This document shows positions 184-62,900 of a stretch of DNA of 64,000 nucleotides, piece by piece. The notes under the pieces are model-generated. The model did no database searches. It was not told where the DNA came from and saw only the letters and a list, made by a program, of their open reading frames with translations. Position 1 is the stretch's first letter, and each line of letters opens with the position of its first letter. Both the position numbers and the translations under genes were made by a program. Origin of the DNA: Amoebophrya sp. A120 (taxonomy: Eukaryota; Protista; Dinoflagellata); contig CAJINV010000016.1 of assembly GCA_905178155.1 (NCBI GenBank), forward strand, positions 496,001-560,000, given 5' to 3'.

Positions 184-3100
184 TCAGCATCTCCATCGAC
201 TCGTCATACGGGTTCACGGCCGTCGAGACCGCGTGCGGGCTATGAAATGCAAATATGCCTGGGTCTGGAAGGTTGGAACTTGTAGTGCTAGCTTTGCATA
301 CCCAGGAAATCTGTATTGCATAACCAACAAAAGTCGCAGCCTCTTTTGTACATGCAAAGCCGCAGCTTCTCATGCGGGTTTCCTATGAGAAAGCGTTCTG
401 AAAAGTTGTCATGCTGTGTTGCATTCGCAACTGTTGCAATCATCCACATTTTAGCATCACAAGTTTCCGCACCCAGACATATTTGCATTTGATACGGGCC
501 CGGTTGCTGCGCCCCGGGCGGTGCTTTCAACTCCAGATTCATCTGTCGCGGTACGATCCCGCGCTTATTGGTATACGCGTGCTTGATGAACTGTTTTTGC
601 GCGTGCACCATCGCCAGCCCGTTCGGCCCTTCCGGTGCGTTCGGCGGTAAGTAGACCGTGATCCCCTCCATTTCCCCGCAGTAGTGCTCGCCCTCTTTCC
701 CCGGAACTAGGAAGTACCGGTAGGGGTTTAGGACTAACCGCGGGTTCAGATTTTGGATCATCGCCTGGTGCAACTCTTCATCAAATGCAAAAATGTCTGG
801 GTCTGGAAGAATCTGAGACTTGTCATGCACAGTTTGCATGAGCCATGATGTCTGTGATGCATGCCCTAGCATCACAGGTTTATTGAGGGACTCATGATGC
901 CTATTCCGCACGACAAATGCCCTGTCCGCGTAGCAAAAATTAGATTCCTTTTGCTGCTCATGCAACACAAATTTTTTAGACATCCAAATGCAGCATCACA
1001 AGTTGCATTCTTCCAGACCCAGACACTTTTGCATTTGATATTCTTCATCCGACATCAGCGCCTCCTTCACCATGCCCTGGATCAATTTCTCGAAACTCGA
1101 CTGTTTCCTTCGCAACATATTGCGAGGAAAAATCCCCCCTCCCCATAATGGACATTTGTGATGCTGGATTTGTGTACACAAATCGACTTGTCTTGCTAGA
1201 AGGCCAAGAGACGCAGTTGCGGCCTAAATTGTAGACGGTTTGTTATGCTGTTTCCCACTTGCAGTGGCCTCCTGTGATGCTGAAGATGCAAGGTTTTCCC
1301 ACGTCAGCGAGCACTACAGTCCGTGTCCGCATCTTTTGCCTTCTAGCATGACAACATGATTTGTGGAAGCAAATCATGCTACACAAGTCGCCGTTTTAGG
1401 ATGAGGAGGGGGGATCGGGATTTTTCATTTTGATACAACACCAGCGCTCGTCGCAGAAAATCCCGAACGATGGTGATCAACTCGGAACTGGATCGGAGCT
1501 TCACCAAAGCGGTCAACGTCCGTTGTAACAGCTTCGCGTTTGGATTCGCTTCGTCGTTGGCGCAAACTTCCGATTCTATATCAAATGCAGAAGTGTCTGG
1601 GTCTGGAATAAACTTGTGATGCTAAGTGGCGTAGCATGGGGAGGCCACAAGTGCTGGCTCAGCATGACAAATTTCATCTGAGCTACTAGGTGTTGCCTAT
1701 TCTGCATGACAAACTGCGTCTCCGCATGACAGAAAAGCGCGGCTCTTGGGCAACGTGCATGACAGATTTAAGAGTCATGCCAGACAAGCATGACAAACGT
1801 GCATTCTTCCAGACCCAGACATTTTTACATTTGATATTCTAGTTGCTTCTTCAACTCCTTCTTTTTCTTCGCCGCTTCCTTCTTTTTCTCCTGCTCATCG
1901 GAGGTGGTTGTGGAAACGCCAGACGATTTCATCTTCACAGTGGATTCCGTCCCAGATTGCCCCGCGGAGGAGACGTCTTCGTCCATGTTGCACGTGAGAA
2001 AATACTGCGTGGGTTTTCCGCGGTCGAAAAAGATTGTGTCAGGGAAAAGGACCCGATGGACCATCTGGCTCATATGCATTGCAAAAGTATCGCACTCGTA
2101 GTGATCGCAGTTATGCATTACAAATGTAGTTGCTTTAAGGTAAATCCGCATTACAAATTTAATTTGTAATGCTGAGCCAGTTTGTATTGCGATTCATACG
2201 AGTACGATACTTTTGCACAGGATAGTTCATCTTTTCCACCAGCTCGTTTTTTCGGGATGCGCCGGTAGCCTGTAATGGGTCGTGTGGTTTGTGTTGCAAG
2301 ATTGGGATTGCAAGATTTTGGAACTACATTTTGAAGAAGATAAAACTCAAACCAACGTGTCAGTCATGCACATTGAGACACAGAGCGAGAATACCACCAA
2401 TCATGCAGACCAATAAATGATTTTTCACATGAGACAAAATCAAAAAATCATACGTCGTCACTTGCCCCAGCCCTGCTCGCGCCGCTTGGGTCGACAACGG
2501 TTGAGAGTTGAATATCGTACGACTGTCTCCCTCGTTCGTCTTTGTAAAGCGTGTATCAAATGCAAAAATGTCTGGGTGTGGGAGGATGGAGCTTGTCATG
2601 CTAAATCTGAATCATGTAAAAATCTGTGTTGCATGATTACCAAAAGCTGTCCACGTGTGACCTAATCGGGATGCAGTTTTTTATGCAGCAGAATAGGCAT
2701 CATAGAGAGAGAACTAATCACAGAATCCGTCATGCTATGTCCTACATAGCAGACATCATGGGTCATGGAAAACCTGCATGACAAGTCTGGCACTCTTCCA
2801 GACCCAGACATATTTGCAGTTGATAGCGTGTTGACGCCGACGATCACGGATCCCTTCATCTTCATCATCAGCCATTGCAGGTCACGGTATTTCTGTATTG
2901 CAGATAGAAACTTTGCGTAGTTGCGTCGGTTGTTTATTATGCAAGCATAGAATTCTAATTTTGCAACTTATTTGATGCTGGCATGCAAAACCCCAGTTGT
3001 GGAAGTCGAAGTTCTTATGAACGGCATCAACACGAATTAATACCCTTGCCGGCGCAACCTCCTTCTTGACGACGGTCTTGGATGATTTTGCTGGTGACCC

Positions 3101-3521
3101 GCGACCACGCTGTTAGAAATTTTGAAGACAATCGCACCAGGTTGTAGTTGTTCAAACAGGAGCATCAGAAACTGAACCGCAGTACTAGGTAGTACACTCA
3201 CGCATGACAAAGTCAAAGACAAACCTCCACTCGCATTAATTATACCGGTTCCCCCGCGGCCCCGCTCGCCTGACTGCCCGCTGCGCCGATGCTGGTTGTC
3301 GCGGGGGCACAGACCAGCGGGTCGATCAGTGAAACCCGGTTTTTGTTGACTTCCTCTAACACCGAGTCGGGAATTTGGATCCCGAGTTTCGGGGCCGTCC
3401 GGGCGAACTTCGCGCATTTCAGACAGCGACAGGTGTCCGAGTGCTGGATGTGGGTCAAGTGCTCCTGTTCGGCGTGGAACCGTCGGCGGACGAAACGCGG
3501 GGAGTCCGCGAAATACTCCAT
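1..3521 (-). CDS. Multi-exon hypothetical protein; 3' end lies outside the window
   Basis: ATG at 3521 (MEYFADSPRF...). Coding-like exons (...LFPDTIFFDRGKPTQYFLT..., ...DEELHQAMIQNLNPRLVLNPYRYFLVPGKEGEHYCGE...) are separated by TIR elements and short introns. No recognisable domain. Confidence 0.6.
241..494. mobile_element. TIR introner family A
   Basis: TAT...ATA ends; TSD cgggc. Confidence 0.9.
780..1040. mobile_element. TIR introner family A
   Basis: TIRs atcaaatgcaaaaatgtctgggtctggaag; flanking tcttc; left terminal T missing. Confidence 0.85.
1118..1435. mobile_element. TIR introner family B
   Basis: TAT..gaaaaatccccc / gggatttttc..ATA; TSD caaca. Confidence 0.9.
1579..1836. mobile_element. 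TIR introner family A
   Basis: TSD ttcta. Confidence 0.9.
2073..2224. mobile_element. TIR introner family C
   Basis: tgcaaaagtatcgcactcgta / tacgagtacgatacttttgca; TSD gctca/gttca. Confidence 0.85.
2554..2825. mobile_element. TIR introner family A
   Basis: TSD gcgtg. Confidence 0.9.
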
Positions 3522-4379
3522 GATGGGGACGAGGGAGTGGTGCTAATGCGGCGGAGGGTTTTGTTCAAACGAGGCTCAGCAAAGAACGGTCGTCATTTTG
3601 GCTTGCACTTTAGTGCTGTACCAATGGGTGAATATCGGCCCGCGTTTCATGTAGTAAGCTCGCGGTACCTACGTAGCCTGAATATGGATCAGAAATGTTT
3701 ACACATAGACGCAGACGAGGACGCCCGGCGTGCCTCTCATTGTGGTTGGCTTTGCCGATAGGCATCGATCACATAAATGGACCTCGATAGCGTGATGATC
3801 ATCAGGAAAGCGACAAAGTAAACGCAGCAACACAAGCTCGCTCGGAGGTACGTACTGACACACTAGCTCAACGTCGACTCTCTGCTAAATGCACCTGGCA
3901 CTCTGCTTTTGAACAATCGATCAAGATGATTGTGTACCATGGTCGACGAGAGCGTCCGAGCCGCCCTGCGTAGAATTCATGTGTGCTCGCTCAAGAAACG
4001 ACTCACTCCTTAAAAAGCTCCCTCAAACAATTTCTCAGCAAAAGATCCAGAACAACGACGACCACACGAAGGCGAAACAACTCCGCTGCAAGCAGATTCG
4101 ACTGAAAGATCACCGCGGGCGGCTAGCTTTAGTACAACCGCGGCCGGATGGCCACGTATGAACGAATGCCGTATGAACGAATAGCGCTAGGCCATTGCCG
4201 CCGAGATGCTGCACGGCGATCACGACAACCTATCCAGCACCAGCTGCAGCGCCACGTCAAAATGCTTTCGCGCAGCGAGCATGTGGCCGAGTGCAACGCT
4301 CGGCAATCAATAACTCCCCTCGCCCACCGAAAAGGGACCGTCTACACCACCGACGGGCGGGCCACAGAGAGACAAGCGA

Positions 4380-5260
4380 GCTGGCCGGCGAAAGGACTAG
4401 GGCCACTCCCGGATCAAAGACAAACAAGACGAGCCCGAAGAGGGCGCCCAAACCAGCGCAAAGGCGGGCGATGAGGGCGGACCCGGCAAACAGCCCGCGG
4501 GCGGGGCGCGCGGGGGCAGCGGGCGCGGGCAAGCAGAAAAAGAAGGCCGGGGGCCGACGCGCGACAGCTTTTTGCCACTTCTCGCGAGACAGTAGTCGGC
4601 ACCCTCGTGCAGGACTGTCTCCCTCGGCCCGCCGGCCAACCGCCGCGGCGGGGCGGGCGCCTGGCGCTCTTTGTCCAGGCATGACGCGCAACGGCGCCCC
4701 GCGTTCTCGAGAACCTCCCGGGGGGGCCAGCCTTCCAATAAACCAGCGCCGCGGGCCCCCGGCGTGCGTCCGGAGCGGAGGACGCTTGGGCGGACGGGGC
4801 GGAAGGAGTTCGGCAATGGGCGCCGAAAGTAATGGGGCGCGCAGGCTAGGCGCCGGACCGCCCTGGTCAAGCGCGCGAGCTGCTCCGGATGTCCCTGGCG
4901 CAGCGTCCCGCCGAGGAAACTTCCTCGATGTACTCCTCTGCCCGGCATTCCCTTCTATGTGGGGGCGCCGGAACCAGTAAGAAGCTCGCTGCGCTTGGCA
5001 TGTGGGAACTCGGGTAGGGGCAGCACCTTCTGCCGGCGGCTGTGTTCGTCCAGCAATAAGGCGGCCACCTGGGGCAGCGCGTTCCGATGGTGGCGCAACT
5101 CTCCGGCCCAGTCACGTCCTTGCCCAACACGAACAAGCCGAAGCCGAGCGCGCAAGCTGCAGCGGCGCGCTCCGCCTGACGCCCATGATTCGGCGGGGAA
5201 AATCGCGAAGCACCTGCACGCGCTCGGTCATCACAGAAATCTTAGTGCGCGATGCGTCCT
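4380..5260. other. GC-rich intergenic island
   Basis: Abrupt rise in G/C runs interspersed with short A/T tracts; only spurious Arg/Ala/Pro/Gly ORFs. Confidence 0.6.
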
Positions 5261-5372
5261 AGCGCCGCTCGGCTCCTTGAACTACAAATGCTCTTGCTCC
5301 GCTGCAAGAGACAAGAATAGGAACACAAATCACCCACACTAAACCTCCAGGCCAATTTCCAGGACGCTTTTC

Positions 5373-8300
5373 CTAGCAGCGAATACTACCACAGGTTAAT
5401 TTTGTTGCATGTGAACCTTGACGTTGAAGATCTTTAAGTCTATTCTCGTCCATCGCTTCCATCTCTCTTGGCTTTTTCAGACGCAGTCTTTCAATCAAGC
5501 TCAGTGGTTCTGCTCGAGAAGTAATTTTAGTTTCCAGACCTTTCAAAACGGCCTTGCTTTCATTTTTCTGTCCGTCTTTTCCAACTTCTCCCGGACTATA
5601 GTTCGGAGCGAATCCTGTCGGATACGACTGCGACAGAGAAACCGGCCCACCAGTCCCCGTTGCCCCACCAAGACCGCTCAACTGACTGTTCCCGTTCAAA
5701 CCGCTGTTTTGGCTGTTGGTCCCCATTTCCTGGCTGACTTCCTTGATCGTCGAGAGCTTCTGTCTCTTCAGCAATGGATCCTGTTCTACTTCATCGTCGT
5801 CCGCAGCATCTTCCGCAAACCCGGTGTCAAGATGTTCACCATCTGCTCCAGATTGTAAAAAACTACCCGAAGAATTCTTCCTCCGCTTCCCGCTGCTGCT
5901 CGTCACTTGTTTCTGTGGCGTGAAAAGACCTAGCGTGCCAACATCTTTTGACCGCGAAGATTGGGCGGAAGATAGCTGCGACGAGGATTGTTGTGACGAA
6001 TCTGATCTTGATGATGTTGTCCCTGCAGTTTGTCCCTTGTAGTTCTGCGATCGTTTGCTTTGCTTCGATTTGTCGTTGTTCTTCCTCTTCCCTCCACTGC
6101 TTGTAGTCCCCCCGTAGAACAGAAATTGCGATTTCTGGGACATTTTTCCAAACGCGATGTTCTTCTTCGAAGCTTGTTGACCGCTGGTTGTTGTACCAGT
6201 TGCGCCGGTACTAGCGCCTGCTGCTGCTCCCGGTTTCTTGTTCCTCTTCCGGGACGAAGAAGCACCAGCAGCACTGTCAACATGCTGCGAGGAAGATAAA
6301 TTCTGGCTTTTCTGGCTGGACACAGAAGTCAAAACCCGGGAGTTCAAATCGTCCCCTTCCTCGTCGCCCGAGATGGACAGATCATCCTCCTCTCCTGACA
6401 AGAAATCAGTTTCCCGAATTTCCGGCTCAGCTTCCTCTTGGTCCTGCTGCAACGCCACAAAACTACTACCCAGCTTATAATTTCCCGCAGCCTGCTCCAT
6501 GTCGACCGTGCGGACTAACACCGACCAGGAAAATTTCGCTTGGCACCTTGGGCACGCGACCGGTAATTCGGTCGGGATCAACGGTAAAACAGGTTGTGGG
6601 GGGTTTTTGTCGCTCCAAGTAGATGCCATTTTTTCCACTTTAGACGAAGAAGACGAACTGCTAGTACCACCGACCACATTAGCTGCTGTCTGTTGCTCTA
6701 CTTTCTGCTGCTCCTGAAGGAAGTGGTTCGCCAAACAGCCAACGTGGAATTGCGTTGCGCAAGAGAGACAAGAGATCAGCAACGGGGCCCGTCGTCCTGG
6801 AAGATTTTTCACCGCTGCAGATGAGGCAGAAGCGGACGAGGAACTGGCACTGCTGCTTGAACTTGTACCAGCAGCGACACTGCTTCCAAGTTCATGTCCT
6901 GGGTTGAGTGGAAGATCACCTCCGGTACTACCAGGACGAGCCGCTGCAGAAAAAAGACTTTTCTGGCACAAACTGCAACTCGTTTCTCCGGCGGCAAATT
7001 GTCTCGATTTCAGCTCTTCCACCTGCTTAAACAGGTAGTTGCAACTCTGCTCCAGGCTCTCAATGTCCCCCTTCGTAATTGCCATGTGCTGCGGGATAAT
7101 TTTCGACGTCACGGGATGTTGAATCACAGGACGACGAGCTCCTGATGTTAACCCATTTCCTATCGCTTCGTCGCCACTCAAACTACCACCGCGTAATGTG
7201 ATTTTCGCCGCGACACGAATCTATCCTGAGTAAAAACGTACCCACACCAGAGTTGTAATGCAAATCTGCATGCTGAAAATGTTTCTCATGCGGAGCTCCA
7301 TGAGAAGCATTTTCTAGTCGTGTTTTGCAATTTGCCATGCTCCAATCAGCATGGTATGCTAGATCTCTGATGCTGCTGAGCTAGCTCAAACAGCACTACA
7401 CTACGAATCCAAATTTGTCATGCAAAACAGCCAAAACTTGTGGATTTGTCTAGCCGATTCCCCATCTTGACTCTGGTGTGGGTACGTTTTTACTCAGGAT
7501 AGAATCGCGTACTTGTTCGTTTGGGTGAATACCTGAGAGCCAGCAGTTGTCATCTTCAAACTGCTTGACGATATGAAAGCAGTACAGTTTTTACTACCTT
7601 CAGTTCTGTCACCAGCATTGTTTTTGTTTTTCTTCTTGTTCATTTCCTTCAGTTGCTTCTGCCTCTCGTCCTCTTCCCGTCGCTTTGCTGCTTCGTCCCG
7701 AATATCGCTGATTTATCCAAAGGAAAAATCCCCCCTCCCCATATCGAAAAGGTATGTTTCCGAAAATTTGCGTTGCTGATTTGAGGTCACAAATCACATT
7801 TGTCTTGCAAGAAGACAAGGGCAGAAGCTTCCGCCCCGTTATGGAAGTGATTTGTCATGCTGTTGGGCCTAAAAGTGGGCCGCTTGTCGTGCTGAATAAC
7901 TAGACCCATACGCCCCTACCTATCCTGGGGATCTGGCCGCAATGCCTCTCTGCAATACAAACCTGATTTGTGTACACAAATCCAGCATCAGAAATTCCGT
8001 TTTGATATGGGGAGGGGGATTTTTCCTTTTGATATGATTTCCTTCAAATTCGCTTCAAATTTCTGCACGTCTTCGTTCAAGGTGGAGCAAGCTTGCATGT
8101 TGTAATTGATGAACTTCTATCAAATGCAAATATGTGGTCTGGGTCTGGAAGAGGACAAGTCTGTCATGCAGGTTTTCCATGATGCATGATGTCTGTGATG
8201 TATGCCCTAGCATCTCAGACTTTTTGAGCCCTTATCGATGCGCATTCCGCATGACAAATGCCCCCTCCGCGTAGCAAAAATTTGACTCCTCTTCCTGCCC

Positions 8301-9337
8301 GCGCAATACAGATTTGTTTAGCATCCAAATCCAGCATCACAAGTTGTACTCTTCCAGACCCAGACACATTTGCACTGCATAACTTCAACGCGGTTTTCTC
8401 ATCTCCCATCGTCCCTAGGTATTTGAGCGCAGCGGCCGCGACTTCCGTAACTCTCGCCTCGTTGGCCAGAAACGGATTGCCGTTCTTGGATGAAGAAGCA
8501 TTTTGGGGGTGCTTCTTGTTCGGTTTTTTACTGTGCGACTTTACAGACGCCGACGCTGCAGTCGCGGCAGCTACGGCCGGCGCTAGTTGTACTGCTCCCG
8601 TAGTTCCCGCATAATTTGTCGTGTTGGTGTCATGATCCCCCAACATGTCACTGTCATTCTCAAAAACGTGTACCCGCAGCGCCATCCGCTTGAAAGGTTC
8701 GCAGTGCAGTAAGAGTTGCGCGACCTGGAGATGCTCGGCATTTGTCAAATACATCCGCCGTCTCCGCCCCGTGGTTTTCGGTTGCAGTTTCCGCAGAATG
8801 TTCTGCAAGGAAGGCACTTGCAGTTCCAGGCTGGTGTTCATCTCAGTTGCGTTGTTGTTCTCCCGGATCCCCGCCTTGACGTTCCGGCTCAAGCTTGGGT
8901 TCTGCCAGGCCCATTCGAACTGCAAAGCCGCGACCTTGTTGGGAAACCCATACACGACAAGCACCATCTTCCAGGGTCGGCCGTCGCCCCGCTTCGTGCG
9001 GTTCGCCCCGCCCTGTTTCTCGCCATTGTGCTGGCGAAGGCGGTTTTTGGGATCGACCGTGAAGCCGACATAGGACTTATCGCAAGAAAAAGCTGCTTCA
9101 CTGTAAACTTGTGATGCAGAAAATGGATCGCAGAAGTGTGTGTCATGCTACAGATGCAAGAGACTGGATTTCTAGCTGCGTTTTCCCTTAGGAACCCCGC
9201 GTGGCAAATTTTCGCTGTCATGTAAAACAAACTTGTGATGCAAAACTTGCAAAATCCTTACAGTGAAACACTTTTTTCGTGCGATAGGACCGTTTTGGGT
9301 GGGGGATGGAGTTCAGCAGGTAGCAGCCGAAGAACAT
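5373..9337 (-). CDS. SLX1: Structure-specific endonuclease subunit SLX1 homolog (GIY-YIG domain, C-terminal RING/PHD-like finger, long low-complexity tail); 5 exons
   Basis: After removing 4 introners the frame reads [17 protein letters not shown]|[59 protein letters not shown], then CSLC...[14 protein letters not shown]...LIP...CPRC...W. I checked frame continuity through all junctions. Confidence 0.9.
7222..7501. mobile_element. TIR introner family D
   Basis: Perfect 32-bp TIR tatcctgagtaaaaacgtacccacaccagagt; TSD gaatc. Confidence 0.95.
7714..8034. mobile_element. TIR introner family B
   Basis: TSD tgatt. Confidence 0.9.
8118..8381. mobile_element. TIR introner family A
   Basis: TSD acttc. 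Confidence 0.9.
9078..9286. mobile_element. TIR introner family E
   Basis: tatcgcaagaaaaa..ttcactgtaa / ttacagtgaa..ttttttcgtgcgata; TSD ggact/ggacc; splits the GIY-YIG motif. Confidence 0.9.
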
Positions 9338-14292: not shown

Positions 14293-14299
14293 TGCAGCA

Positions 14300-14640
14300 T
14301 TTTTTTTTCGGGATTTTCGCGCCGCCGCCGGAGTGCCACGGCCCAAGGGTTACACGCCTACGGGGGCCGGCTTTTTATTTTAAATGATACCTGCTCCCCC
14401 GGTGGGGCTCGGGCCATAACTAGCGGCGGAAGGTAAATTTTGCCTGGCGCCTTTGTTTGGAGCTTGCGGCGGTTACTCCGCAGCCCTTGCTGTAGTGGTA
14501 TGTCGGTGGCGCTTTTCTTTTTTTTGGGGGGATTTTCGCGCCGCCGCCGGAGTGTCACGGTCCCAGGGCTACACGCGGAAGGGGGCCGGCTTTTTGGTTT
14601 TTTTAATACCTGCGCCCCCGGCGTCGCTCGGGCCGCAATA
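14300..14640. repeat. Diverged direct duplication of ~120 bp (period ~220 bp)
   Basis: gggattttcgcgccgccgccggagtg..cacg...gggggccggcttttt...atacctgc.cccccgg...gctcgggcc at about 14310 and 14530. Confidence 0.85.
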
Positions 14641-28118: not shown

Positions 28119-28769
28119 GGAAGGGAGAGGTGGCACGGACCGTGCTGGTGCTCTTGCAAAAGCATTTTATTTAGGCGCTGCTGTATAGCAGCCGTTGGTG
28201 ACGGCGATTCGCACTTCTGAAGGAGGAGCTGCCGATGTATTTATAAAAAGATCATATGCGTTCATCTTCTACATTATTTATCAATTGCTGATGAAAATAG
28301 GTATCAGCGAGCAAGTCCTCGCTTGCAGCTTCATACACAGATATGCATGAGGACACACTAGCTTTCGAGCTGAAGTACACGATGGCCCCCTGAGGCAGAT
28401 CTTCGTTCTCAAATGATGCGCAGCGCCGCAACCAACAACATGAAAAGGATCAACCAGTAGTCGTGGAAAGGGCCGCCCTAGCCTTACACTTGCACCGAAA
28501 CACGAGAACGACCGAAGCAATACGCGGAACACATGCGCCTTCACCATGACGATGATAGGGCGATCGACGTAACTTGCGAGAGATGACGCACCACGTCCGC
28601 ATGATACTTGCACCCACGCTCTGCGATAGCAGAAAACATCGCCGGGATAGCTATTCCTTTAAGCCTGCACGCCGCACCACGCCCACGCAATCGTTGCGCG
28701 CTGCGACAGCAAAAGGCAACGGTGAGGCAGTTGCTCCGTCATCCACGCACCGTACGTAGGTAGGCAGCG

Positions 28770-41689: not shown

Positions 41690-42640
41690 ATGGGCCGGTG
41701 GATCAAGAAGCATAGCGGCAACCAACACGCCCGGCAAGGGCCGACACTACCAAAGGGAGCGAGGGCCGCGCCAGAGGTCGGTGGCCTCTCTGCGCATAGC
41801 ACCGGCTGAAGCGGCGGACTTGGCCGCCAAAAGCCTGCGCCAGGGCCCTCCCACCGGGCACTGAGGCGCCCTGCCTGTGGTGTGGGGGCAGCGGCAGCCG
41901 CGGCCGGCAGCCCGCCGGGCGCGCCGGTCCTTCCTTCGAGGCGGCCCGGTAGTGAAAAAACCAAACGAACTCGTGGGGGCGCTCGCTTTGGCGCGGCGGG
42001 CTGGCTTGCAACGATAAGGCGCGGCCGGGGGCCCCGCCCATGCCGGGGGCCGGCGGCCCGATGCTTCATTCTTCAGAAAGTCGCGGCAGATTGATTGCAG
42101 CGGCCGCATCGCACTCGGGACGCACTACCTCAATGTGGCCGCGGTTTGCGGCCCTGCATGCTGGAAGAGGGGACGGCGGGGCCCTGCGGCAAAGAAACCG
42201 CTACTGCCCCGCGGAATGATCCCCGAGCGAGTCCCCATATTGACGGCTCTTCCTGCTTTGGACGAGCTCCCTTATTCGGGGAGCCCGCCCGACCTTGCCC
42301 CCGCCCCCCCCCGCGGCATGCGGCGCGGCCGCGCCCGCCCGGGGCCTGAAAGTGGCGCACGCGTCGCGAATATGCGCCCGGGCCGCCACGTTCCTGGCCC
42401 ACCTCCCAGATGATGCGCGCCACGCTGCGCGGCGCAGCTTTCGCGCTGCCGTCCCAAAGCGGGCGCAGAGTATTCGCGCCCGTCCATCTGGCGAATGGGC
42501 TCCCCGCGCCATTAAGCACCTTCGCGAGCGCGCGCGCTGTTCCGTGTCGCAGGAACGCCACGCCACGACGAAAGTCCCACCCAACCCAAACACGCCCCGA
42601 GGGCGGACCCGGCTCCCATGCACACACTGCGGAGGGCGCT
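41690..42640. other. GC-rich intergenic island
   Basis: Same composition as the other two islands. Confidence 0.6.
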
Positions 42641-52300: not shown

Positions 52301-52990
52301 TGCCTCTCATGGGCGTGCGCATTACAGATGCTCCTGCCATTGCGCATTTGCATGACAACTCTGGGGTGGCGAGGTTTTTACACAGCATACGCGGGACTCG
52401 ATCGTCTGCCGCCCCATCAGACCCCGCGCGCGGACGTTCACGCCCTCGGATTCGAGCACCGCAACAGGGGAGGGCTCTTCGACCAAATCGTACATTTTCG
52501 CCGAGTCCTGGTCGGGAGACGCGTGTGGACCGCCATAGGCGTCGTCGAAAAAGAGGAAGTTCTTGTCTTTTTTGGAAGAAGATGACAAAGAACTTGGCAC
52601 AACATGCCTTGCCGTACTGCTGCTGGAGCCTCCCTCCTGCAGCCTTGACGATCCGAACTGTGACTCGAAATCGTCCAGATGATCCACCGCATAGAATTTC
52701 TTGGCCGCTGCACCAGTGGTCTCGTCCTTCTGCAGCTCCTTTTGATGCAGACCTGCACTTTCCTTCATGTCCCGGCGGAGATCGGCGGAGAAAAGATCGT
52801 CCGCTTCGCCGGAGAAGCTCATGCCAGGTATCAGATCTTTCACACTGGATTCGATGTCTTTTAATTGTTGGTACAGCTTCGCGTCCTTCGCCCTGCGGTC
52901 ATCGATACTCAGTTCGTGGTTCCCGCTTCGTTTTGAAGCTCCGCCGATATGATCAGGCGGAGCAAAGACGAGGTCTATGGAACCTGCCAT
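43336..52990 (-). CDS. Large multi-exon hypothetical protein with coiled-coil and low-complexity regions
   Basis: ATG 52990 (MAGSIDLVFAPP), coiled-coil exons at 50.7-51.7 kb, a ~2.2 kb exon at 46.3-48.5 kb and a terminal exon to 43336. Introns are a mix of introners and GT-AG type. Could be two genes. Confidence 0.6.
44720..45043. mobile_element. TIR introner family B
   Basis: TSD tggtg. Confidence 0.9.
45650..45945. mobile_element. TIR introner family B
   Basis: TSD aacag/gacag; similar to the 1118 copy. Confidence 0.88.
48535..48797. mobile_element. TIR introner family A (TCT left end)
   Basis: TSD gagcg/gaccg. Confidence 0.82.
48838..49096. mobile_element. TIR introner family A
   Basis: TSD gtggt. 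Confidence 0.9.
49152..49391. mobile_element. TIR introner family A (CAT left end)
   Basis: TSD cttgt/cttgc. Confidence 0.85.
49521..49782. mobile_element. TIR introner family A
   Basis: TSD cctgc, which allows a GT-AG register. Confidence 0.9.
49916..50076. mobile_element. TIR introner family C
   Basis: TSD actcc. Confidence 0.88.
50166..50385. mobile_element. TIR introner family F
   Basis: TSD cccct. Confidence 0.9.
50473..50681. mobile_element. TIR introner family E
   Basis: TSD cgcgt. Confidence 0.88.
51748..52009. mobile_element. TIR introner family A
   Basis: TSD tcgtc. Confidence 0.9.
52111..52389. mobile_element. TIR introner family D
   Basis: TSD cgcgc/cgcgg. Confidence 0.85.
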
Positions 52991-53922: not shown

Positions 53923-56900
53923 TCACAAAAACGTGTACTCCTGGAAGTTGTTTGCGAAATCCAGGTGCTCGTAGTTGTCGATGTTGGGTTTTTGATGCAC
54001 CGGCACGCTGTTTCTTTTCTCGGAGTGGTAGTACACTCTTTCCGGTTGGTTTTTCCGCTCGAAGTCGTCGTCGTGCCACAGATCCTGTTCCGCATAACGG
54101 GTTCGCTTCGACTTGTGATCGTTGTAAAAATCTTGGTCCTCGTCGTTCGAGTCCCCCGGGTGCTGGTTTGCCGCCTCGGAAAAAATGGCGTGACCTTTGA
54201 TACAATTTTTTGTACACGAGTAGTGCATGACATCAAAGTGCTTCCACTTTTAAAGTAGATTTTGCATGACAAAAACCAAATCCGCAGTTGCAAAACAAGT
54301 ATAAAAACAGTTACCGCCCAAAAGTGGTTCCTCGTCTAGCATATCCAAGTACGGATCGTCCCCAAACCCGTCCCAATCGTGGTGGATTTTATGCATTGCA
54401 AAAGCATCCCATCGTGATTGTACTGCATTACAAATTTCTTCAAAACCAAAACGGAGAATGAAACTTGTCATGCAGCTTCCGGTTAGGAAGTAGCTTTGTC
54501 GTGCGTGGCTGCAATCTTCAGTCCGGCTACACTACTTTTGCACAGGATAGATTTCCCCGTGCTGGACCTCGTTTTTCTCTGCTTGTGGGTCGTCTCCCAG
54601 CCCGTCCCACTCCTTCGATTCCCCGTTGTCCTCCGGCCAATCGTAATCCGACCAGTCGTAGAGTTTCTTGCCCTTCTTGTGAAAGTCCCGCTCCGCGTCG
54701 GGATGGTCCGCTGGGTTGTGGACATGTGTTGTACTCTTTTCGCTGTAGTCGTGATGCGGGTCGAGGTGGTGGTTCAGCTCATCGTAGTCGTCAACGTCGA
54801 AATCTTCATGTTCGTCTGTTTTCTCCCCAGCATCATGCTGTTGACCTTTTTCTTCGCTTGTTGACAAGAAATTGTTGTTCTGGTCGTCTTTTGATGATAG
54901 TTTTTCATCATCATCTCCGTTAACACCTTCATTGTCGGTTTGCAAAAACGATTTCGTATTCTCCTTTTTCACGACCTTGTTGATATTACCGGTTTTCTTC
55001 TTGCTCACCGGGTTAATCTTCGGTTTCCCGTCATACACCGGCGTCCCTCCGCCTCCGGGTGGCGGCTCGGAACAAGCGGGGATGGAGGTCGTTGGGGTGT
55101 TTTCATCACGAGATCCACCATCGCCTTCTGCGACCGGTGCATCAGTGCAGAGGGGAACGCCGGGGGTCGTAGCTTCATCTTCACCTTTACCGTCTTCGCT
55201 GTGATCCTTTGGGGCTTCTGGTGGGGAGGTAGCAGATGAAGCAGTGTCATGATCTTCCTTCTCGTCTACTTCTTTCTCCGCTTTAAGCTCGGTCAGGGTT
55301 ACTGAAGGATCGGACTTTTGATGGGTGGTTGTATCTGCTTTCTCAGTCGGCTCTTGTTCCGCGACGTTGTTCACAGTTTTGATCTTGTTCCCGACCTGAA
55401 AGAATTTACGTGCTTGCTTATATTCGCTTCTGTTCGTTTCTCAGTGAAACCAGATCAAGATTGCATGCTGTATGTTCTTCCGTGCGGGTTCGCAGGCAAA
55501 GATTGCAAAAGATACACTCCCCTGAAAACCTCAAAAAAGCGATAGGGCGAAGGGCTCAAATCAAGCATGCCGTCGAGGCTGGCAACCACAAGTATGCCCG
55601 AGGGGGACCGAGGGGGGACCGGGGTCGAGCGACTTTTTTTCCCCCCACCAGCCGCAAAACACGACCTGAGTCTGGTTTCTGAGCGAAAACGGCACTCAAG
55701 CAACCAAAAAAAGTCGCTTTTCACTCAAAATTCCGCAACCCCGAGCGCATTCGGTCTCTTTCGATGGCCAACAACACAGAAAAAAGTCGCTCCCCCTCGG
55801 TCAACCTCGGTCCCCCTCTTCCCCAGTCTCCCGTGCGGTTTCGCGGAAAAAGATTGCAAAAGATGCTTTCCCACAAAGACGTCAAAAAAGCAACAGGGCG
55901 AAGGGCATAAATCAAGCATGCCGTCGGGGCTGGCGTTCGCAAGTATGCTTCAGGGGGACCGAGGGGGGACCGAGGTCGAGCGACTTTTTTTCCTCCCACC
56001 AGCCGCAAAACACGACCTGAGTCTGGTTTCTAAGCGAAAACGGCGCTCAAGCAACCAAAAAAAGTCGCTTTTCACTCAAAATGCCGCAATCCCGAGCGCA
56101 TTAGGTCTCTTCCGATGACCAACAACCTGGAAAAAAGTCGCTCGCCCTCGGTCAACCTCGGTCCCCCTCGTCCCCAGTCTCCCGTGCGGTTTCGTAGAAA
56201 AAGATTGCAAAAGATGCTTTCCCACAAAAACCTCAAAAAAGCAGCAGGGCGAAGCGAATAAATCAAGCATGCCGTCGGGGCTGGCGATCGACAGTATGCT
56301 CGAGGGGGACCGAAGGTTGACCGAGGTCGAGCGACTTTTTTTCCTCCCACTAGCACCAAAACACGACCTGAGTCTGGTTTGTGAGCGAAAACGGCGCCCA
56401 AGCAACCAAAAAAAGTCGCTTTTCACTCAAAACTCCGCAACCCCGAGCGCATTAGGTCTCTTTCGATGGCCAACAACACAGAAAAAAGTCGCTCGCCCTC
56501 GGTCAACCTCGGTCCCCCTCGTCCGCAGTCTCCCGTGCGGTTTCGCAGAAAAAGATTGCAAAAGATGCGTTCCCACAAAAACCTCAAAAAAGCGACAGGG
56601 CGAAGGGCTCAAATCAAGCATGCCGTCGAGGCTGGCGATCGCAAGTATGCCCGAGGGGGACCGAGGGGGGACCGAGGTCGAGCGACTTTTTTTCCTCCCA
56701 CCAGCCGCAAAACACGACCTGAGTCTGGTTTCTGAGCGAAAACGGCAATCAAGCAACCAAAAAAAGTCGCTTTTCACTCAAAATTCCGCAACCCCGAGCG
56801 CATTAGGTCTCTTTCGATGGCCAACAACACAGAAAAAAGTCGCTCGCCCTCGGTCAACCTCGGTCCCCCTCGTCCCCAGTCATCTCCCGTGCGGTTTCGC

Positions 56901-59900
56901 AGAAAAAGATTGCAAAACATGCTTTCCCACAAAAACCTGAAAAAAGCATCAAGGCAAAGGGCTTAGATCAAGCATGCCGTCGGGGCTGGCGATCGCAAGA
57001 ACGCTCGAGGGGGACCGAAGGCTGACCGAGGTCAAGCGACTTTTTTTCCTCCCACCAGCCGCAAAACACGACCTGAGTCTGGTTTCTGAGCGAAAACGGC
57101 GCTCAAGCAACCACAAAAAGTCGCTTTTCACTCAAAATTCCGCAACCCCGAGCGCTGTAGGTCTCTTTCGATGGCCAACAACACAGAAAAAAGTCGCTCG
57201 CCCTCGGTCAACCTCGGTCCCCCTCGTCCCCAGTCTCCCGTGCGGTTTCGCAGAAAAAGATTGCAAAAGATGCTTTGATGAAGAAAATTGAACTATACCT
57301 CCTCAATGCTTTTTTTCCACTCCTTCTTGTTCGTTTTACCGTCCTCAGACTCAGATAACCCAAGAGTATCTACGCTTTCCTTCTTTCCTCCTTCACTGGT
57401 GTGATCCTTGTCGTCGCCGCTCGTGCTTGTTTCTGCGTCCGTTCTTTCCTCACCTGCCTTCTCCGCCTGCTCCGCCGGCGCTGTTTCGCTTTTTTCGTCC
57501 TGAACCGTCGTTACTGTCGGAGTTACTTGCTCACCTTGATCCTGTGCGACATTTTTTTCTCCTTCGGTTGCTGGAGAAGTTGCAGTAGATAAATTTTCGT
57601 CCTCTTTCTGCAGTTTGTTCATCGTCTTCGCCCCGACGACGTCGCTTAGCTTCATAAAATCCGGATTCCCCAGGTATCGGTGCCGAGTCATCTGCGCAGC
57701 TTTTTCCGGATGTTTCGTATCGACAGAGGAAATTGTTCACCGCACACGGAGATGAAGAGCCAGTGTCTCAACTGAAGAACTTGCATAACACCAAGACCCT
57801 CTACCCTTGATCTTGAATCTCATTGATTCTGCATTACAGCTTTCGGTTTTATTTCAAGAGATGAGTTGGCAAGGTTTTTCATCTTCTACGAGTCGTGCAT
57901 AGTGAATCTCCAATGCGTATTTCGACGCAACCTCTTTCATCGCTTTGTCCTCCATTGCGGCCTCCTCCTTTTTCATTTTTTCCGTGTGGTCTTTCGCAAC
58001 CTGATCCAACATCTTGATTCGGATCTCCCACTCCTTGTGTTTCTGCTCTTCCTCGGGCGTCCGCGGCTTGTGATCTTCGTGGAGGTTTGTTTTGTCCTCC
58101 TTTTGGTCATCATGTGCTGATTTCTCTACTACTTCCGACTTACCTGTTTTGCTCTTTCCGTGCAGAGTACTGGTGGTTGCAGCATCTGTTCTTGACTGGT
58201 GCGACGTGGTCATCGTGGATTTTTTCCGTGCGAGTTGTGCCGTTCCTGTTGTCTCCTCTTCCTTCTTTGCATGATCGTTCTTACTGGACGCTGCTACTCC
58301 GCCGCTTAGTTTCTCCTTGTCAACGACGTGCCACTCATCTTTCGAACCTTTTTTATCCTCGACGGAAATAAATGATTCGTCCGCATGCTTGTTGTCGTCC
58401 GCTTGAAGGAACGACGTGCCAGTCGATGTACTGGGGCTGGCTTTGATGTCTTTGTTTTCCTCGCTAGTAGGTCTTGGCTTTTCATGGTCCAAAACATCAT
58501 CGTCGTCCTGGTTTGATTTTTTCCATTTCTCATTTACACCTCCACGTTCACATTTACGCTTAGCGAAGATCATGCACATCAGCACTTAACGAAATATCAA
58601 AATACCTCATCGTTTTGGTGGTCGTACGGCTCATCCACGGAGTTCATCGGGTTTAGGGGGACAGCTCCCGCTGCCGCGGTATGCATTGGAAAACAAGCCG
58701 ATAGGAGTTGTACTGTCTTCGATGGTCGAGTAACCTACTTCTTCGAGGATGCAGCCATATCTTCGAACATTTTCATGCTGATAATTTATCAGCATGGAAC
58801 TGTTTGATAGCCAACTTACACGACAGAACTACCACGGTGAAAAATTCATTCCTACCAGTTGTTATTCCAAAGCATACGATGGCATGGGTGCTGGTATCTC
58901 ATCTATTTGCACAAACCCTCCGGGCGCGGTGTTATGCGAGGGCGAAGGAACGGGGGGTTGGGTGGTGCCCTCCGTGGCCGGCGGTGGCGTTGCCGTGGTG
59001 GCTGGGCACGTGCAATTTTTCAGGACCCCCAGTAGACGCTCTTGGTCGGTGCAATTGTGGTTGCAAGGTATGCATTTTACAAATACGATCGAATCGCCTT
59101 GACGTTTGGAGATTTCTGTTGGTGAAGCTCGCATGATCGCAGAGTAGCTGCTCGTCTGGCGCAACAGTATCAGAAAAAATTTTGGGAGGCTCATATTGCA
59201 GTAGAGTCATTCGCAAGACGCATGACAAACTGAGTTAAAAATTCGCAGCAAATCATCAAGAGAACTCGCCACTCCTATTCGTGGATCTTCCCAAGTCTTG
59301 CTCTTCTTCATCTTCAAATTATCGCGTCACAATCACAAATTATCCAGGGACCACAGATCAATTATATTTGCAATGCGTACAAGGGGTCTGCTGGCAACAC
59401 GGCGGCGCGGTTACGTTTCCGTTAGTTCCGTATTACAATGAAAAATGCCCCCACCCCCGAACTTGGGAGCCTTTGTATTGCAAACCTTTCCAAATGAAAC
59501 ATTCGCCCTCTTGCATCTATCAGCATCACAGATTTCTAATCGCGAATAGCAAAAATTTGCATTGCAAAAGATCCCAGCAAAAGCGGCGCTTGTCATGCAA
59601 GCGATCATGCGATACCCGCCTAGACTCTGCATCAGAGAGATTCGTACCCCTTGCATGCATGACAAAAAGTTTTCATTTGGAAACTTCGCATCGCAAATTT
59701 TTGCAAATTTGAGGGTGGGGGCATTTTTCACTGTGATATCCCGTTCAGCGTCTGCTGGATCTGCGTCCCGTTCGACGGTGGGGACGCTGTGGTCGTCACC
59801 GTACCGGTTTTCGGTGAACCTTCGGGAATGCTCTTGCTCTTACTATTGCTTCCCGCCAGGCCCAACATTTTCTTCAACCCGTTGTAGTTCTCCCGCAGCA

Positions 59901-62900
59901 TTTCGCTCAGCGTGCCCGCTACACCGGAATCGTTCGGTTGTTCTTTCAATTGTCTCCTCGTTTTCTCCACTAATGACATTTTAGCTGTTTTCTTGCCAGA
60001 CGTCACCTCCTTGCTTTCCGAAGATTTCGCGGTTTTGACCGAGAAAAACAAATCCTTAGTACTTCCCTTTTCATCCGCGTCGTGATTGCCTTCGATTTTG
60101 AAGGAAAGAGAGTTTTTCTCTACCTGTTCGGAAGTTGTAATAGTGGATTTTTGAAGTTTCTTCGCCGCTGCTAATTCCGCCTTTTTCGCCTCCAGTTCCT
60201 GCTCCGCTTTTTTCCTCTTCGCTAGCGCCGAAACGGTTCCGGGGGTGGCGACCCCATTGGGGCCTATGGTCTGCGGCACTTCTTCTTCTTCTTCTTTTTC
60301 CGGGGCGTGTTGTTCGTCTTTTTTGTCTTGGTCCGTGTCACTGCTAGAAGAATTTTCTTCTACCTTCGCGCTGGGGGAAGCGGTGCTGTCGCTTGTGGAA
60401 GCGGCGACACCGGGGCTGACGGTGCTCGCTGCTGTATCCTGAGTAAAAACGTACCCACGCCAGAGTTGTAATGGAGATTTGCAAAGACAGGAAGACTTGT
60501 GATGCGCATCCCCATGAGAGCCATTTCCAATCGTGTTTTGGAATTTGTGATGCTGTGAACAGGATGAGCAGATGAATCTGTGATGCGGCTGCACTTGCTA
60601 ACCTGCACTACACTGCAGAGCGCAACTTGTCATGCGTGACTTACAAAACTCCTAGGTTTGTGTTGCAAAATCCCCATCCTGACTTTGGTGTGGGTACGTT
60701 TTTACATAGGATATGCTGAAGGACTGGCACTGGTTACCGCAGAACTCGGACTGACAGTACTAGCAGCTGCATCCGGAGCGGCGCTCGTAGCCGCAGCACT
60801 ACCGGGGCTGATACTGGTCGCTGCTGAGTTACTCGGACTGACGCTACTCGCTGCTGCACTCGCACCAGGACTGACGCTACTCGCTGCTGCACTCGCACCA
60901 GGACTGACGCTACTCGCTGCTGCACTCGCACCAGGACTGACGCTACTCGCTGCTGCATTCACACCACCGGGACTGACACTAGTAGCCGCTGCATTCACAC
61001 CGGGACTGATGCTGCTCGCTGCTGCATTCGCACCACCGGGACTGACGCTACTCGCTGCAGCATCCGGGCTGGCGCTTGTCGCGGCCGAGGCACTGCTACC
61101 GGGGCTGGCACTCGTCGCCTGATCGAAGTTTGAATTCACGATGATGGTCGTGCTGCTGTCGGGCTCCTGCTGTCCAACCGGAACAGCGGTGCTCGCGGTG
61201 GAGGAGCTGGATTCATCCGCTGTTTTCCCCTCATCGCCTGGACCGGTATCAACTCAAAAAGTGTCTGGGTCTGGAAGATTGCAACTTATCATGCTGCTTT
61301 TGGACTCTAAAAAAATTTGTAGTGCATGACCAGCAACAAGAGGGGCACAGCTTATGCTACCCGGACAGGGCATTTCTCATGCAGAAGGTGCACCACGAAG
61401 CCCTCTACAAGTCTGCGATGCTAGGTCATGCATTAAAGGCATCGTGGGTCATGAGAAATATGCATGACAAATCTTGCATTCGTCCAGACCCAGACATTTT
61501 TGCATTTGATAATCGGTCCCGACAGCCGACTGGTCTTCATTTTTTCCGTCGGCCGCACTCCCGTGCCACTTTCCATCGTGAACAACTGCGTTACTGTTGC
61601 TCGCGGGAGTTGAAGGAGACGTTGACTGCTGCTGCTGCGCAGTAGAAGAAGCGCCGGTACTACCGGTTGCAGTATTGCTACTCTCATTCGGAATAGACGT
61701 GGCAGGTGCTGCACCGTTAGGAGCGTTAGTCTGGCCTGCCGTTGCTCCTGTACTAGCTGCGTTTTCCTCTGCCGTCGTACCGTCGTCTTCATCTCCCGAG
61801 GTTGTACTACTGCTTGTGGAAAACGTCAGTGTCTTCGCGGTTTTCACCTTCGAAGATGCCCCCTCGTCCTGCGAGGAAGTACTACTGCTAGATGCGACGT
61901 CAGCATCAGAAGTTCTCTTCGTCGCCAGGGCTGGTTCCGCAGCGTCCGATCCGTCCGTGGTGAGGTCGACCTTGAGGAATTTTGACTGCAGGGAGTTTTT
62001 TCCGTGGATGTTTTCCTGCATTTTCTTCTCCAAAAATTCCTTCTCCTTCTCCACCTCGTCGTTCTTGTAGTTGTGCTGGATCGCCTCTTTCTGGTTTTCA
62101 TCTTTATTCTCCTCGACTTCTTCGTCCAAACCGATTTTCATGTGCTTTCTCTGCTGCATCTTAATCTGCTCGATCTCCCGCTCCGCTTCCCTTTTTGAGG
62201 CCTCGTTTTTCTTCCGGATCATGGTCTTTATGTCTTCTGTATGCACAGCAAACGTAGAATCGCAAAGTCTGGCGCATGAATTGCAATAGTACAAAGTTTT
62301 TCAAAATCGCAAATTGGAATACAAGCGACCGACCACAGTGCAGATAGTTTTCTTGTCTCAATATGCAACATTGCAATTCGCACGGCTTTATACGATTATT
62401 TTCCACCCGGCGCATACTCTTCCTTCTTTGCAAATGTCGTTTTCCTCTTCTCCGCCTGTTTCTTCCGGATCATGTCCAAATCTTTCTTCACCAACTGCTC
62501 CGGGGTCAGGTTTATCAACTGTAAAAATGTCTGGGTCTGGAAGAGTGTTAAACCTGTCATGCAGGTTTTCCATGACCCATGAGGTCTGGAATGCGGGACC
62601 TAGCATGACAGAGTCTGTGAGGTCTCTGCTATGCCTATCCTGCATGAGAAACTCCCTCCCAACTTGGTCGAAAGTGAACAGCATTTGGCCCTCATGCAAC
62701 ACAGATTTTCGCATTATTCGGATTTAGCATGACAACTTGCAATCTTCCAGACCCAGACATTTTTGCAATCCATAAGGTTTTCCTTCTTCTTAAACGCGCC
62801 CGGCCGTTCGTCTTCGGGTACATCCCCGGAGATCCCCTCTGAGATCTCGCTTGGCGTGTACGCGTGCATGTCGCCGGTTATTTGCTGCATCATGGGCGGG

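Follow-up and report, generated by a model that had tools for sequence, protein, structure and literature searches.

Introner elements and their shared motif

The 64-kb stretch of DNA from the marine parasite Amoebophrya sp. A120 analyzed here (the window) contains many short elements with different terminal inverted repeats (TIRs), and the question it raises is why all of them should carry the same short motif and whether this motif is read on DNA or on RNA. The window elements have TAT...ATA termini, TIRs, and 5-bp target duplications, and the duplication, which the search did not demand, is exact at most of the 57 elements and lies flush with TAT/ATA. Of 720 copies found by HMM, 465 had a 5/5 duplication and intact ends. 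The letter A occupied end positions 11 to 13 in 807 to 843 of 900 ends (the leading TAT was a search requirement); group G and cluster 7 depart from this AAA after the inverted-repeat start. Element lengths ranged from 150 to 330 bp, and 450 elements formed 49 clusters, the largest with 150 members. The window elements match the published description of A120 introners, for which the text of the report gives inverted repeats of TAT, seven looser letters and AAA, direct repeats of 3 to 5 nt, a mean length of approximately 240 nt, no GT-AG, and co-oriented gene blocks (PMC7789003). The inverted-repeat start, direct repeats, length, lack of GT-AG, and co-oriented gene blocks are alike here, whereas the direct repeats of the window are consistently 5 bp.

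Below, each copy of the motif (site) is written as its position in the element, followed by > for TGTNATGC or < for GCATNACA on the plus strand. Group A includes 1-182 (truncated by the window start; four sites), 241-494 (5-bp duplication; 44> 75> 131> 170> 218<), 779-1040 (46> 78> 95< 134< 188< 219<), and 62513-62774 (46> 95< 134< 188< 219<). Four sites were found at 2554-2825 and 31100-31373; five at 18578-18838, 25775-26025, 40358-40608, and 49152-49391; six at 34450-34709, 48533-48797, 49521-49782, 61247-61511, and 26474-26746, the last with decayed ends; seven at 1579-1836, 8118-8381, 33617-33884, 39589-39850, 48838-49096, and 51748-52009; eight at 34796-35047; and ten, termini included, at 26115-26366. 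The A elements at 18083-18343 and 18578-18838 lie in one gene, the former as an inverted copy (89%) of the latter. Group B comprises 1118-1435 (43> 75> 127> 159> 233< 265<), 7714-8034 (six sites forming three pairs with members 32 to 33 bp apart), 12517-12838 (five sites), 45650-45945 (six sites), and two further copies considered below. Group C includes 2073-2224 (47< 80< 96> 114>) and 49916-50076 (55< 86< 102> 120>); 25554-25706 and the decayed 31980-32145 have three sites each, and a C-like element at 54390-54549 has three interior sites. Group D is represented by 7222-7501 (36> 66> 115> 148> 198> 229>, a single orientation), 60435-60713 (36> 67> 115> 148> 197> 228>), and, reversed relative to 7222, 12903-13181 (52< 83< 132< 165< 213< 244<), as well as by 35273-35554 (six co-oriented sites), 52111-52389 (five co-oriented sites), 40673-40955 (five sites), and the decayed 31455-31761 (five sites) and 32868-33197 (three sites). 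The F elements at 9078-9286, which splits the GIY-YIG domain of an SLX1-like gene, and 50473-50681 share the arrangement 36> 67> 126< 160>; seven sites lie in 20196-20416, and 39364-39537 is F-like (45> 76> 137<). Groups G and H comprise 20656-20893 (five sites) and 50166-50385 (four), and 39952-40256 (seven) and 59431-59738 (eight), respectively. An alternating triple of sites with gaps of 17 and 16 bp also occurs in a noncoding stretch without TIR (31811-31979).

The original prediction described a motif present in every family whatever its TIR and seemingly rare in exons and intergenic DNA, and read it as a protein-binding code. The window contains 179 strict sites (74 TGT[ACG]ATGC and 105 GCAT[CGT]ACA), 165 of which fall within the 57 curated TIR elements (14,703 bp; 11.2/kb), and the remaining 14 lie outside elements (0.28/kb). 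In 100 dinucleotide shuffles of the elements, the mean number of strict sites was 4.1 and the maximum 11; the density in elements is approximately 40-fold above both the rest of the window and the shuffles. At least one strict site was present in 57/57 elements, across all seven TIR groups, and the observation of a shared motif was confirmed. The stretches 780-1040, 2073-2224, 7222-7501, and 20656-20893, given as examples, hold 4, 3, 2, and 2 strict sites, respectively. The fuller form of the motif is GCA[T/A]NACA[AG][AG]T, with approximately five copies per element, and the core common to several families is one conserved 9-base motif. Furthermore, a site of at least 10 bits was found in 411 of 412 elements sampled from independent loci. 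The anticipated spacing of 15 to 40 bp does not apply to strict sites, which occur approximately every 90 bp, but holds for a wider matrix motif with 304 interior sites in window elements (3 to 9 per element), where 156 of 247 neighbor gaps fall in this range (median, 33; 82 gaps of 31 to 33 bp). Similarly, mixed orientation is not universal: the strong sites of family D point nearly all one way, and the two strict sites at 20656-20893 share one orientation.

The proposal that the motif is the real intron-definition signal does not stand as a general rule, as no site of at least 10 bits was present in 32 of the 46 predicted GT-AG introns of the loci; a role confined to the noncanonical introns is conceivable. 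The residual density in canonical introns, 2.3 sites/kb, is the level given by 30 to 35% neutral decay of old copies. Within the window, sites were seen in minus-strand GT-AG introns predicted at 2270-2453 (no TIR; one or two sites), 3110-3245 (two co-oriented sites, 40 bp apart), 32494-32643 (a co-oriented pair, 33 bp apart), 33381-33550 (one), 46122-46268 (one; the piece of X1 record 4 begins at 46269), 50847-50973 (one or two), 54195-54314 (two), 57692-57889 (one), and 59002-59380 (two). In the predicted intron at 2893-3043, also on the minus strand, the acceptor itself is a site (GCAATACAG). Two more minus-strand GT-AG introns, 44278-44423 (one or two sites) and 44570-44684 (an alternating run, 49> 66< 82>, with a weak 99<), agree in length with X1 record 3.

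Conservation and spacing of the sites

On within-family trees, the fixed letters of the motif accumulated 0.88 changes per column on terminal and 0.25 on internal branches, compared with 1.85 and 0.88 for other interior columns and 2.08 and 0.91 for the central N, demonstrating that the motif is more conserved than its flanks. With context-matched expectations for 720 copies, the ratio of observed to expected change was 0.41 for the fixed letters and 0.97 for the central N. Constraint on the fixed letters was stronger on internal branches (ratio of 0.28) than on terminal branches (0.48), as is expected if constraint acts during copying. In aged copies the motif is still constrained (0.55 to 0.6), and constraint on the inner TIR is relaxed to approximately 0.9, an observation that counts against a reading by transposition only.

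The sites also obey a phased spacing rule of approximately 16/32 bp, which was missed in the first reading of the sequence. Co-oriented sites are paired at 31 to 33 bp. A pair at 30 to 33 bp occurred in 15 of 17 clusters, which are not fully independent because several share a TIR type; 20,000 null placements gave 3.1 such clusters on average and 10 at most. An inverted, decayed site often lies midway in such a pair, approximately 16 bp in, and is all that 25 pair spacers have in common. The first site is mostly 36 to 52 bp from the element end, and in some families the outer terminal repeat also comes close to matching the motif. Two observations weigh against reading the array as binding sites for one protein: distances between pairs (39, 48 to 54) fit no single helical phase, and length changes inside pairs (3.2/kb) are only slightly rarer than those between other sites (3.9/kb).

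Such regularity could instead be neutral, left over from a 32-bp tandem repeat in the common ancestor of all families, and a tandem repeat is a conceivable starting point for an alternating 16-bp array. Spacers between pairs are slightly more alike between TIR groups than shuffled ones (0.361 versus 0.311), but this likeness consists mostly of the decayed inverted site, and no alignment was found between masked interiors of different TIR groups. We consider a neutral relic very improbable, as the fixed letters are 2.4-fold conserved around a free center within families and in matched context; as the sole explanation, it is refuted by this conservation. An ancestral tandem repeat may nevertheless be the origin of the array.

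Removal from transcripts

The elements sit inside exons in either orientation, and copies outside exons (1 of 154) provide hardly any control set. Taking out the element together with one duplication brought 119 of the 133 confident cases back into frame, and a GT-AG cut obtained by sliding within the target duplication is possible in just 10 of 221 exon-inserted copies. The X1 contigs are RNA-like, their RNA origin being our guess, and lack the elements along with one duplication copy each; two of them were fitted to the base by this removal (552 = 552 and 178 = 178), as read from net length rather than from single junctions. By the same measure, X1 record 2 lacks the B element at 35968-36293, located in an MFS_2 transporter gene, the A elements at 36732-36992, 37071-37336, and 38169-38430 (reversed relative to 36732), the G element at 37836-38080, the F element at 38482-38691, and the D elements at 36352-36634 and 37369-37652, and X1 record 3 lacks the B element at 44720-45043 (47> 80> 151< 183< 234< 266<). 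Since GT-AG is rarely usable and yet removal is exact, the signal must reside within the element and be independent of its orientation.

The two D elements bear directly on an RNA-level code, in which sites in the pre-mRNA would fold into nested hairpins or be targets of an RNA-binding splicing factor. On the transcript strand, 36352-36634 carries GCAUNACA only (four strict sites) and 37369-37652 carries UGUNAUGC only (five strict sites), and both are missing from the same RNA-like contig, which disfavors the suggested code on single-stranded RNA. In line with this, a bias in transcript orientation was sought in 200 copies and none was found (104:96 relative to the host gene). The suggested nested hairpins are predicted by folding: site-to-site pairing probability was approximately 0.4 to 0.99 in most of 15 consensus sequences, with interior folding z-scores from -0.8 to below -7. 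However, pairing reached only 0.02 to 0.31 in clusters 3 and 9, the dominant spacing joins co-oriented sites, which cannot pair, and no covariation was found in inverted site pairs, whose central base matches at about the chance level (mostly within 0.1; largest excess, 0.17) and evolves at the background rate. An Rfam search gave no match. Even though 5 of 63 canonical acceptors resemble a site (at most one mismatch), we find an RNA-level code hard to credit. Given the lack of covariation, the presence of both orientations in genes, and the loss of both opposite-strand copies, the motif most likely acts on double-stranded DNA.

A DNA array could also mark the element for removal. An array-bound protein, which might be a chromatin factor of the host or a transposase helper that has been domesticated, would then present the element's ends to the spliceosomal apparatus as transcription proceeds and replace the U1 route, and the host would be expected to keep the sites after insertion. 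This dual use is conceivable but doubtful. It would account for exact removal in the near absence of GT-AG, and U1 was not detected in Amoebophrya according to the text of the genome report (PMC7789003). Where the duplication or an end of a copy was damaged, extra changes in fixed letters amounted to 0.69 (0.47 to 0.99) of background and those in the inner TIR to 1.47 (1.08 to 2.12). This is a weak test, given that the upper limit of the interval is close to 1, a low value was also obtained for the free N (0.28), and subfamilies that escaped sampling can produce the same pattern. Against dual use, the terminal hairpin alone could provide an orientation-independent signal, most predicted canonical introns are devoid of sites and their residual density matches neutral decay, and copies outside exons that could serve as controls are almost nil. 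Still more speculatively, a single DNA-binding protein might read the 16/32-bp array and label the elements on the chromosome both as transposition cargo and as introns. A transposon-derived stand-in for U1 would then define the splice ends at the DNA level, whichever way the element lies. If true, this would be a DNA-templated intron-definition code that let tens of thousands of exon insertions be tolerated.

A proposed binding protein and known systems

We lean toward the interpretation that the GCA[T/A]NACA[AG][AG]T array is bound, as double-stranded DNA, by one transposase or transposase helper that would mobilize all families. The ideas of a protein-binding code and of transposase subterminal sites, already raised in the original prediction, fit the position-specific conservation, the free central base, the fixed spacing across TIR groups, and the independence of orientation. 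As 32 bp is approximately three helical turns, co-oriented sites would face the same way, and a sequence-specific protein could oligomerize along the array, coat the 150- to 330-bp element, and help to bring its ends together, in the manner of TnpA at the subterminal repeats of En/Spm. The array would be maintained by selection acting between lineages that copy themselves, even as terminal repeats and spacers diverge into families. No transposase domain was found in 23 window ORFs or in the 99 long ORFs scanned out of 145 at the loci, no recognizable transposase in seven long TIR elements (long-ORF scan, L031 only), and no IS3-like DDE transposase among the ORFs scanned from window and loci. 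Farhat et al. (2021) likewise report no transposase in A120 and, in the text of their paper, argue against general mobilization by transposase (PMC7789003); an integrase-like ORF is described for A120 TIR introner family 38 in the accessible part of a further report (PMC12130899).

The lack of an element-encoded protein in the scanned ORFs, together with a phased, DNA-acting motif common to all TIR groups, would also suit a chromatin or other DNA-binding protein, abundant in the host, whose role is to aid insertion, survival, or silencing but not cutting. In 83 kb of intergenic-like DNA, however, we counted 41 sites versus 30 in shuffled sequence, no real excess, so that a host factor would have few native sites, and the first sites are placed at fixed distances from the element ends. 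We therefore regard a host chromatin mark as improbable.

Introner elements are already known. The published text on A120 introners, figures S19, S24, and S25 aside, gives terminal and direct repeats and hairpins (PMC7789003), with no mention of an internal motif common to the families or of a rule for its spacing, and in the parts of the literature covered we found no report of such a lattice. Transposase-type binding sites have precedents in the sections available of two studies, in which TnpA binds subterminal motifs of En/Spm (PMC2613891) and Lemi1 proteins bind those of the Arabidopsis Emigrant MITE cooperatively (PMC1636448). These are likewise short motifs inside the TIRs of nonautonomous elements, direct and reverse, read as cis-determinants. 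In contrast, one motif fills the whole element here and is common to families with different TIRs, it follows a 16/32-bp rule, the elements are removed exactly from mRNA, and the binding protein is putative. The termini and duplication are neither of the CACTA nor of the pogo type. As far as the accessible text goes, IS3EU/GingerRoot elements share the TA..TA termini but have 6-bp duplications (PMC10045372), compared with 5 bp here and 6 bp at no window element. Euglena nonconventional introns, in the portion of the report available, are also abundant, lack GT-AG, and have paired ends (PMC12501133); their code, a strand-specific CAG/CTG signature, is found close to the ends, whereas here the array is internal and both orientations work.

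Abundance and spacing of the motif in the introners

The window is eukaryotic DNA with its genes on the minus strand, and Pfam matches identified four of them (6/23 ORFs scanned), namely, genes for a GIY-YIG protein resembling SLX1, for a UDPGT, for a FYVE protein and for an MFS_2 transporter. A search for inverted repeats, curated by hand and with six borders later adjusted, yielded 57 elements of 150-330 bp that start with TAT and end with ATA, most of them flanked by an exact 5-bp target duplication. The elements form seven terminal-repeat groups (A, B, C, D, F, G and H; labels of this analysis) and fit the description of the Amoebophrya A120 introners in the text of PMC7789003, which gives repeats of TAT, seven looser letters and at least three A residues, direct repeats of 3-5 nt and a mean length of 240 nt. 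Amoebophrya carries about 30,000 such non-canonical introners according to that text, with no transposase reported for A120 (Farhat et al.) and U1 not detected. In strain A25, the termini are TTA.

The strict motif (TGT[ACG]ATGC or GCAT[CGT]ACA) occurred 179 times in the window, with 165 sites within the 57 elements (11.2/kb) and 14 elsewhere (0.28/kb). Shuffled elements contained 4.1 strict sites on average and at most 11 (100 shuffles), confirming the predicted enrichment. A family-weighted matrix with the consensus GCA[T/A][GCT]ACA[AG][AG]T revealed 304 interior sites in the window elements, i.e., 3-9 in each. The original prediction of one site every 15-40 bp held for these matrix sites (156 of 247 gaps; median, 33 bp) but not for the strict sites, which lie approximately 90 bp apart.

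To obtain copies beyond the window, metagenome contigs were scanned with the family-A end pattern, which gave at least 130 matches; 128 loci (758 kb), none overlapping the window, were taken from the matches listed. Among these matches, the identity of copies with window elements reached 97%, and 411 of the 412 short elements carried a site scoring at least 10 bits. Overall, at least 458 distinct duplication-flanked elements, 39 of them from the window, fell into 49 clusters. Because the search pattern included one site of the family-A copies, the conservation tests described below were rerun without the A clusters, and the outcome was unchanged.

Co-oriented sites 30-33 bp apart were present in 15 of the 17 clusters with at least three non-window copies, which are partly non-independent since several have a terminal repeat in common; random site placement produced a mean of 3.1 such clusters and never more than 10 (20,000 trials). 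The pair was found in all seven terminal-repeat groups and in four clusters outside them, and it was absent from clusters 7 and 10. Masked interiors aligned within group B only, with no alignment across groups. The distances between inverted neighbours peaked at 16-17, 33-34 and 46-49 bp. Furthermore, 25 pair spacers showed a decayed inverted site approximately 16 bp ahead of the second site (T15 G13 T14.. T13 G14 C12 of 25), and sub-threshold scores in the opposite orientation also increased at +16. This makes the unit an array of alternating sites whose half-period is 16 bp and in which one half is often decayed. Length changes were slightly rarer inside pairs than elsewhere (3.2 versus 3.9 per kb), and this weak avoidance of indels, together with the variable gaps between pairs, counts against a rigid spacing rule. 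One strict helical phase for every site was rejected because gaps of 39 and 48-54 bp do not fall into one phase. The outer terminal repeat TATGCATTGCAAA itself scores as a motif site (e.g., at window positions 34450, 37071 and 49916), and the terminus may therefore be a variant of the same putative binding site.

Conservation of the motif and its putative binding factor

In trees built for 15 clusters, change at the seven fixed letters amounted to 0.88 per column on terminal and 0.25 on internal branches; the corresponding values were 1.85 and 0.88 for other interior columns and 2.08 and 0.91 for the central N. In 720 HMM-found copies, the trinucleotide-matched ratio of observed to expected change was 0.56 for the inner terminal repeat and 0.41 for the fixed letters versus 0.97 for the N, a difference that makes a neutral relic hardly credible as an account of the motif. 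A free base within a conserved word is expected from sequence-specific recognition and not from a stem. The motif array is real, selected and phased.

The occurrence of the motif in all families, its conservation by letter and its rule-based spacing imply one trans-acting factor. On balance, we lean towards a single transposase or helper common to all families: this protein would bind the array in each of them, it would oligomerise along the element, and the oligomer would help to pair the element ends. We liken the array to the subterminal repeats bound by TnpA in En/Spm (PMC2613891) and, on the Emigrant MITE, by Lemi1 proteins (PMC1636448), although the termini and duplications place our elements outside both superfamilies. 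IS3EU/GingerRoot elements have similar TA..TA termini, but their duplications are 6 bp long (PMC10045372) and ours are 5 bp, so the elements were not filed under that group.

The main rival is a second, host-level role in which the array marks elements for exact removal; we regard it as possible but distinctly less probable. In aged copies with a damaged duplication or end (n = 255), the extra change in motif letters was 0.69 (0.47-0.99) of the background versus 1.47 (1.08-2.12) for the inner terminal repeat. This constraint points toward host selection but is suggestive only, because unsampled subfamilies can mimic the pattern and the free N was low too. A host chromatin factor as the reader of the array fits worse and appears improbable.

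The elements are already known; the internal array did not turn up in the literature covered, namely, paper listings, two sections and further passages of PMC7789003 with its supplementary text, passages of the review PMC11282704 and the supplements of PMC12130899. How introners are mobilised and removed was left open in the text of the paper describing them (PMC7789003). The motif provides a ready bait for the trans-acting factor, a defined set of mutations could tell a role in transposition from one in splicing, and introners and their fossils can be annotated by the motif regardless of family.

Removal of the elements and relation to canonical introns

Flanks were available for 441 elements; in 343 of these the nearest neighbour was more than 60 bp away, and 221 were called coding with confidence. 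Among 200 coding copies with a cluster orientation, 104 ran with the gene and 96 against it, with the strand caller sometimes wrong (e.g., for the element starting at 35968). Family A copies in the window seemed biased in orientation (7:19 by alignment), a trend dismissed because it was far weaker in the larger set (29:39 in cluster 0 and 16:12 in cluster 2). A GT-AG cut within the duplication was possible in only 10 of the 221 coding copies, and in 119 of 133 cases scored with confidence the best frame resulted from taking out the element with one duplication. Removal was also indicated, by net length only, in X1, a run with RNA-like contigs that we guessed to be RNA, whose long pieces are exon-only and whose contigs may exceed one transcript. 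Record 2 of this run measured 552 nt versus 2729 in the genome, and subtraction of eight elements and 5 nt for each left exactly 552; record 3 fitted exactly (178) after removal of one element and two GT-AG introns.

Two D copies among the eight removed in record 2 carried the motif on the transcript strand only as GCAUNACA (start, 36352) or only as UGUNAUGC (start, 37369). This, the balanced orientation and the lack of covariation between inverted sites, whose central bases agreed at about the chance rate, argue against an RNA-level code, which we consider marginally less probable still than the chromatin factor. Folding did predict site-to-site pairing for most consensus sequences, although for clusters 3 and 9 the values were no higher than 0.02-0.31. 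The nested hairpins of the original prediction were rejected because covariation was lacking, and an Rfam search gave no match. We infer double-stranded DNA to be the form in which the array is read.

Site density was 0.26/kb in exons, 0.50/kb in intergenic-like DNA and 18.9/kb in elements. Of the 777 introns predicted in 71 loci, the confidence filters retained 85, and 46 were without a family match. Sites were present in 14 of these 46 (19 sites, 2.3/kb; shuffles, 3.6) and absent from 32, so the proposal that the motif is a general intron-definition signal does not stand. The five site pairs found had element-type spacings (16, 33, 39, 48 and 50 bp), and 11 of 17 GT-AG introns predicted in the window, a set partly chosen by eye, carried a site. 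Simulated neutral decay of 30-35% erased the terminal repeat and left 2-3 sites/kb. The site-bearing GT-AG introns are therefore best read as fossils of elements; since neutral decay reproduces their site density, they were rejected as proof of host selection.

Two predicted GT-AG introns of the window, at 2893-3043 and at 2270-2453, have a motif site or near-site as their 3′ splice site (GCAATACAG and CCATTACAG), and 5 of 63 predicted acceptors matched the motif with at most one mismatch; old sites may have been co-opted as acceptors. On the minus strand, the TAT end of a decayed C element at 31980-32147 makes a GT donor together with the G before it, and a non-canonical intron might become canonical in this way.

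Coding-like flanks on both sides were scored for 139 of 154 copies and non-coding flanks on both sides for 1 of 154, by a weak classifier that scores 45% of intergenic windows as coding. This near-exclusive location in exons suggests exon targeting or loss elsewhere. Loci with copies include topoisomerase II, Rpb1 and E1 genes.

Long elements and other repeats

No transposase domain was found by Pfam in the 99 ORFs scanned of 145 long ORFs, the family-A end pattern had no match in viral contigs, and the ORFs scanned in the window and loci contained no candidate motif-binding protein. An integrase-like TIR family (family 38) has been described in A120 by Gozashti et al. (PMC12130899). The loci held seven long TIR elements (457-2459 bp), by appearance captures or insertion derivatives. 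Four long elements (L020:5084-6055, L031:476-2934, L056:1547-2930 and L069:15480-16657), with ends of family A or D and flanked by an exact duplication of 5 bp, carry 0.7-2.2 kb of other DNA between their ends, have sites only close to these ends, and look like Pack-type captures; the 415-residue ORF of the L031 element had no Pfam match. A further TAT...ATA element of 1.1 kb (L005:505-1608) has a terminal repeat unlike that of the other families, a GC-rich interior and five sites, four of which lie in the first 214 bp.

Other features of the window were also recorded. Intergenic stretches of 60-69% GC at 4200-5200, 28700-29900 and 41700-42600, in surroundings of 45-55% GC, contained one motif site in all. 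A 351-bp tandem unit with internal inverted repeats and no motif sites (55476-57276; 5.1 copies, 91% alike) is bordered by coding stretches on both sides and is probably contained in a single intron of approximately 1.9 kb. Finally, an intergenic stretch of approximately 190 bp occurs at 14320-14640 as two diverged direct copies, as judged by eye.
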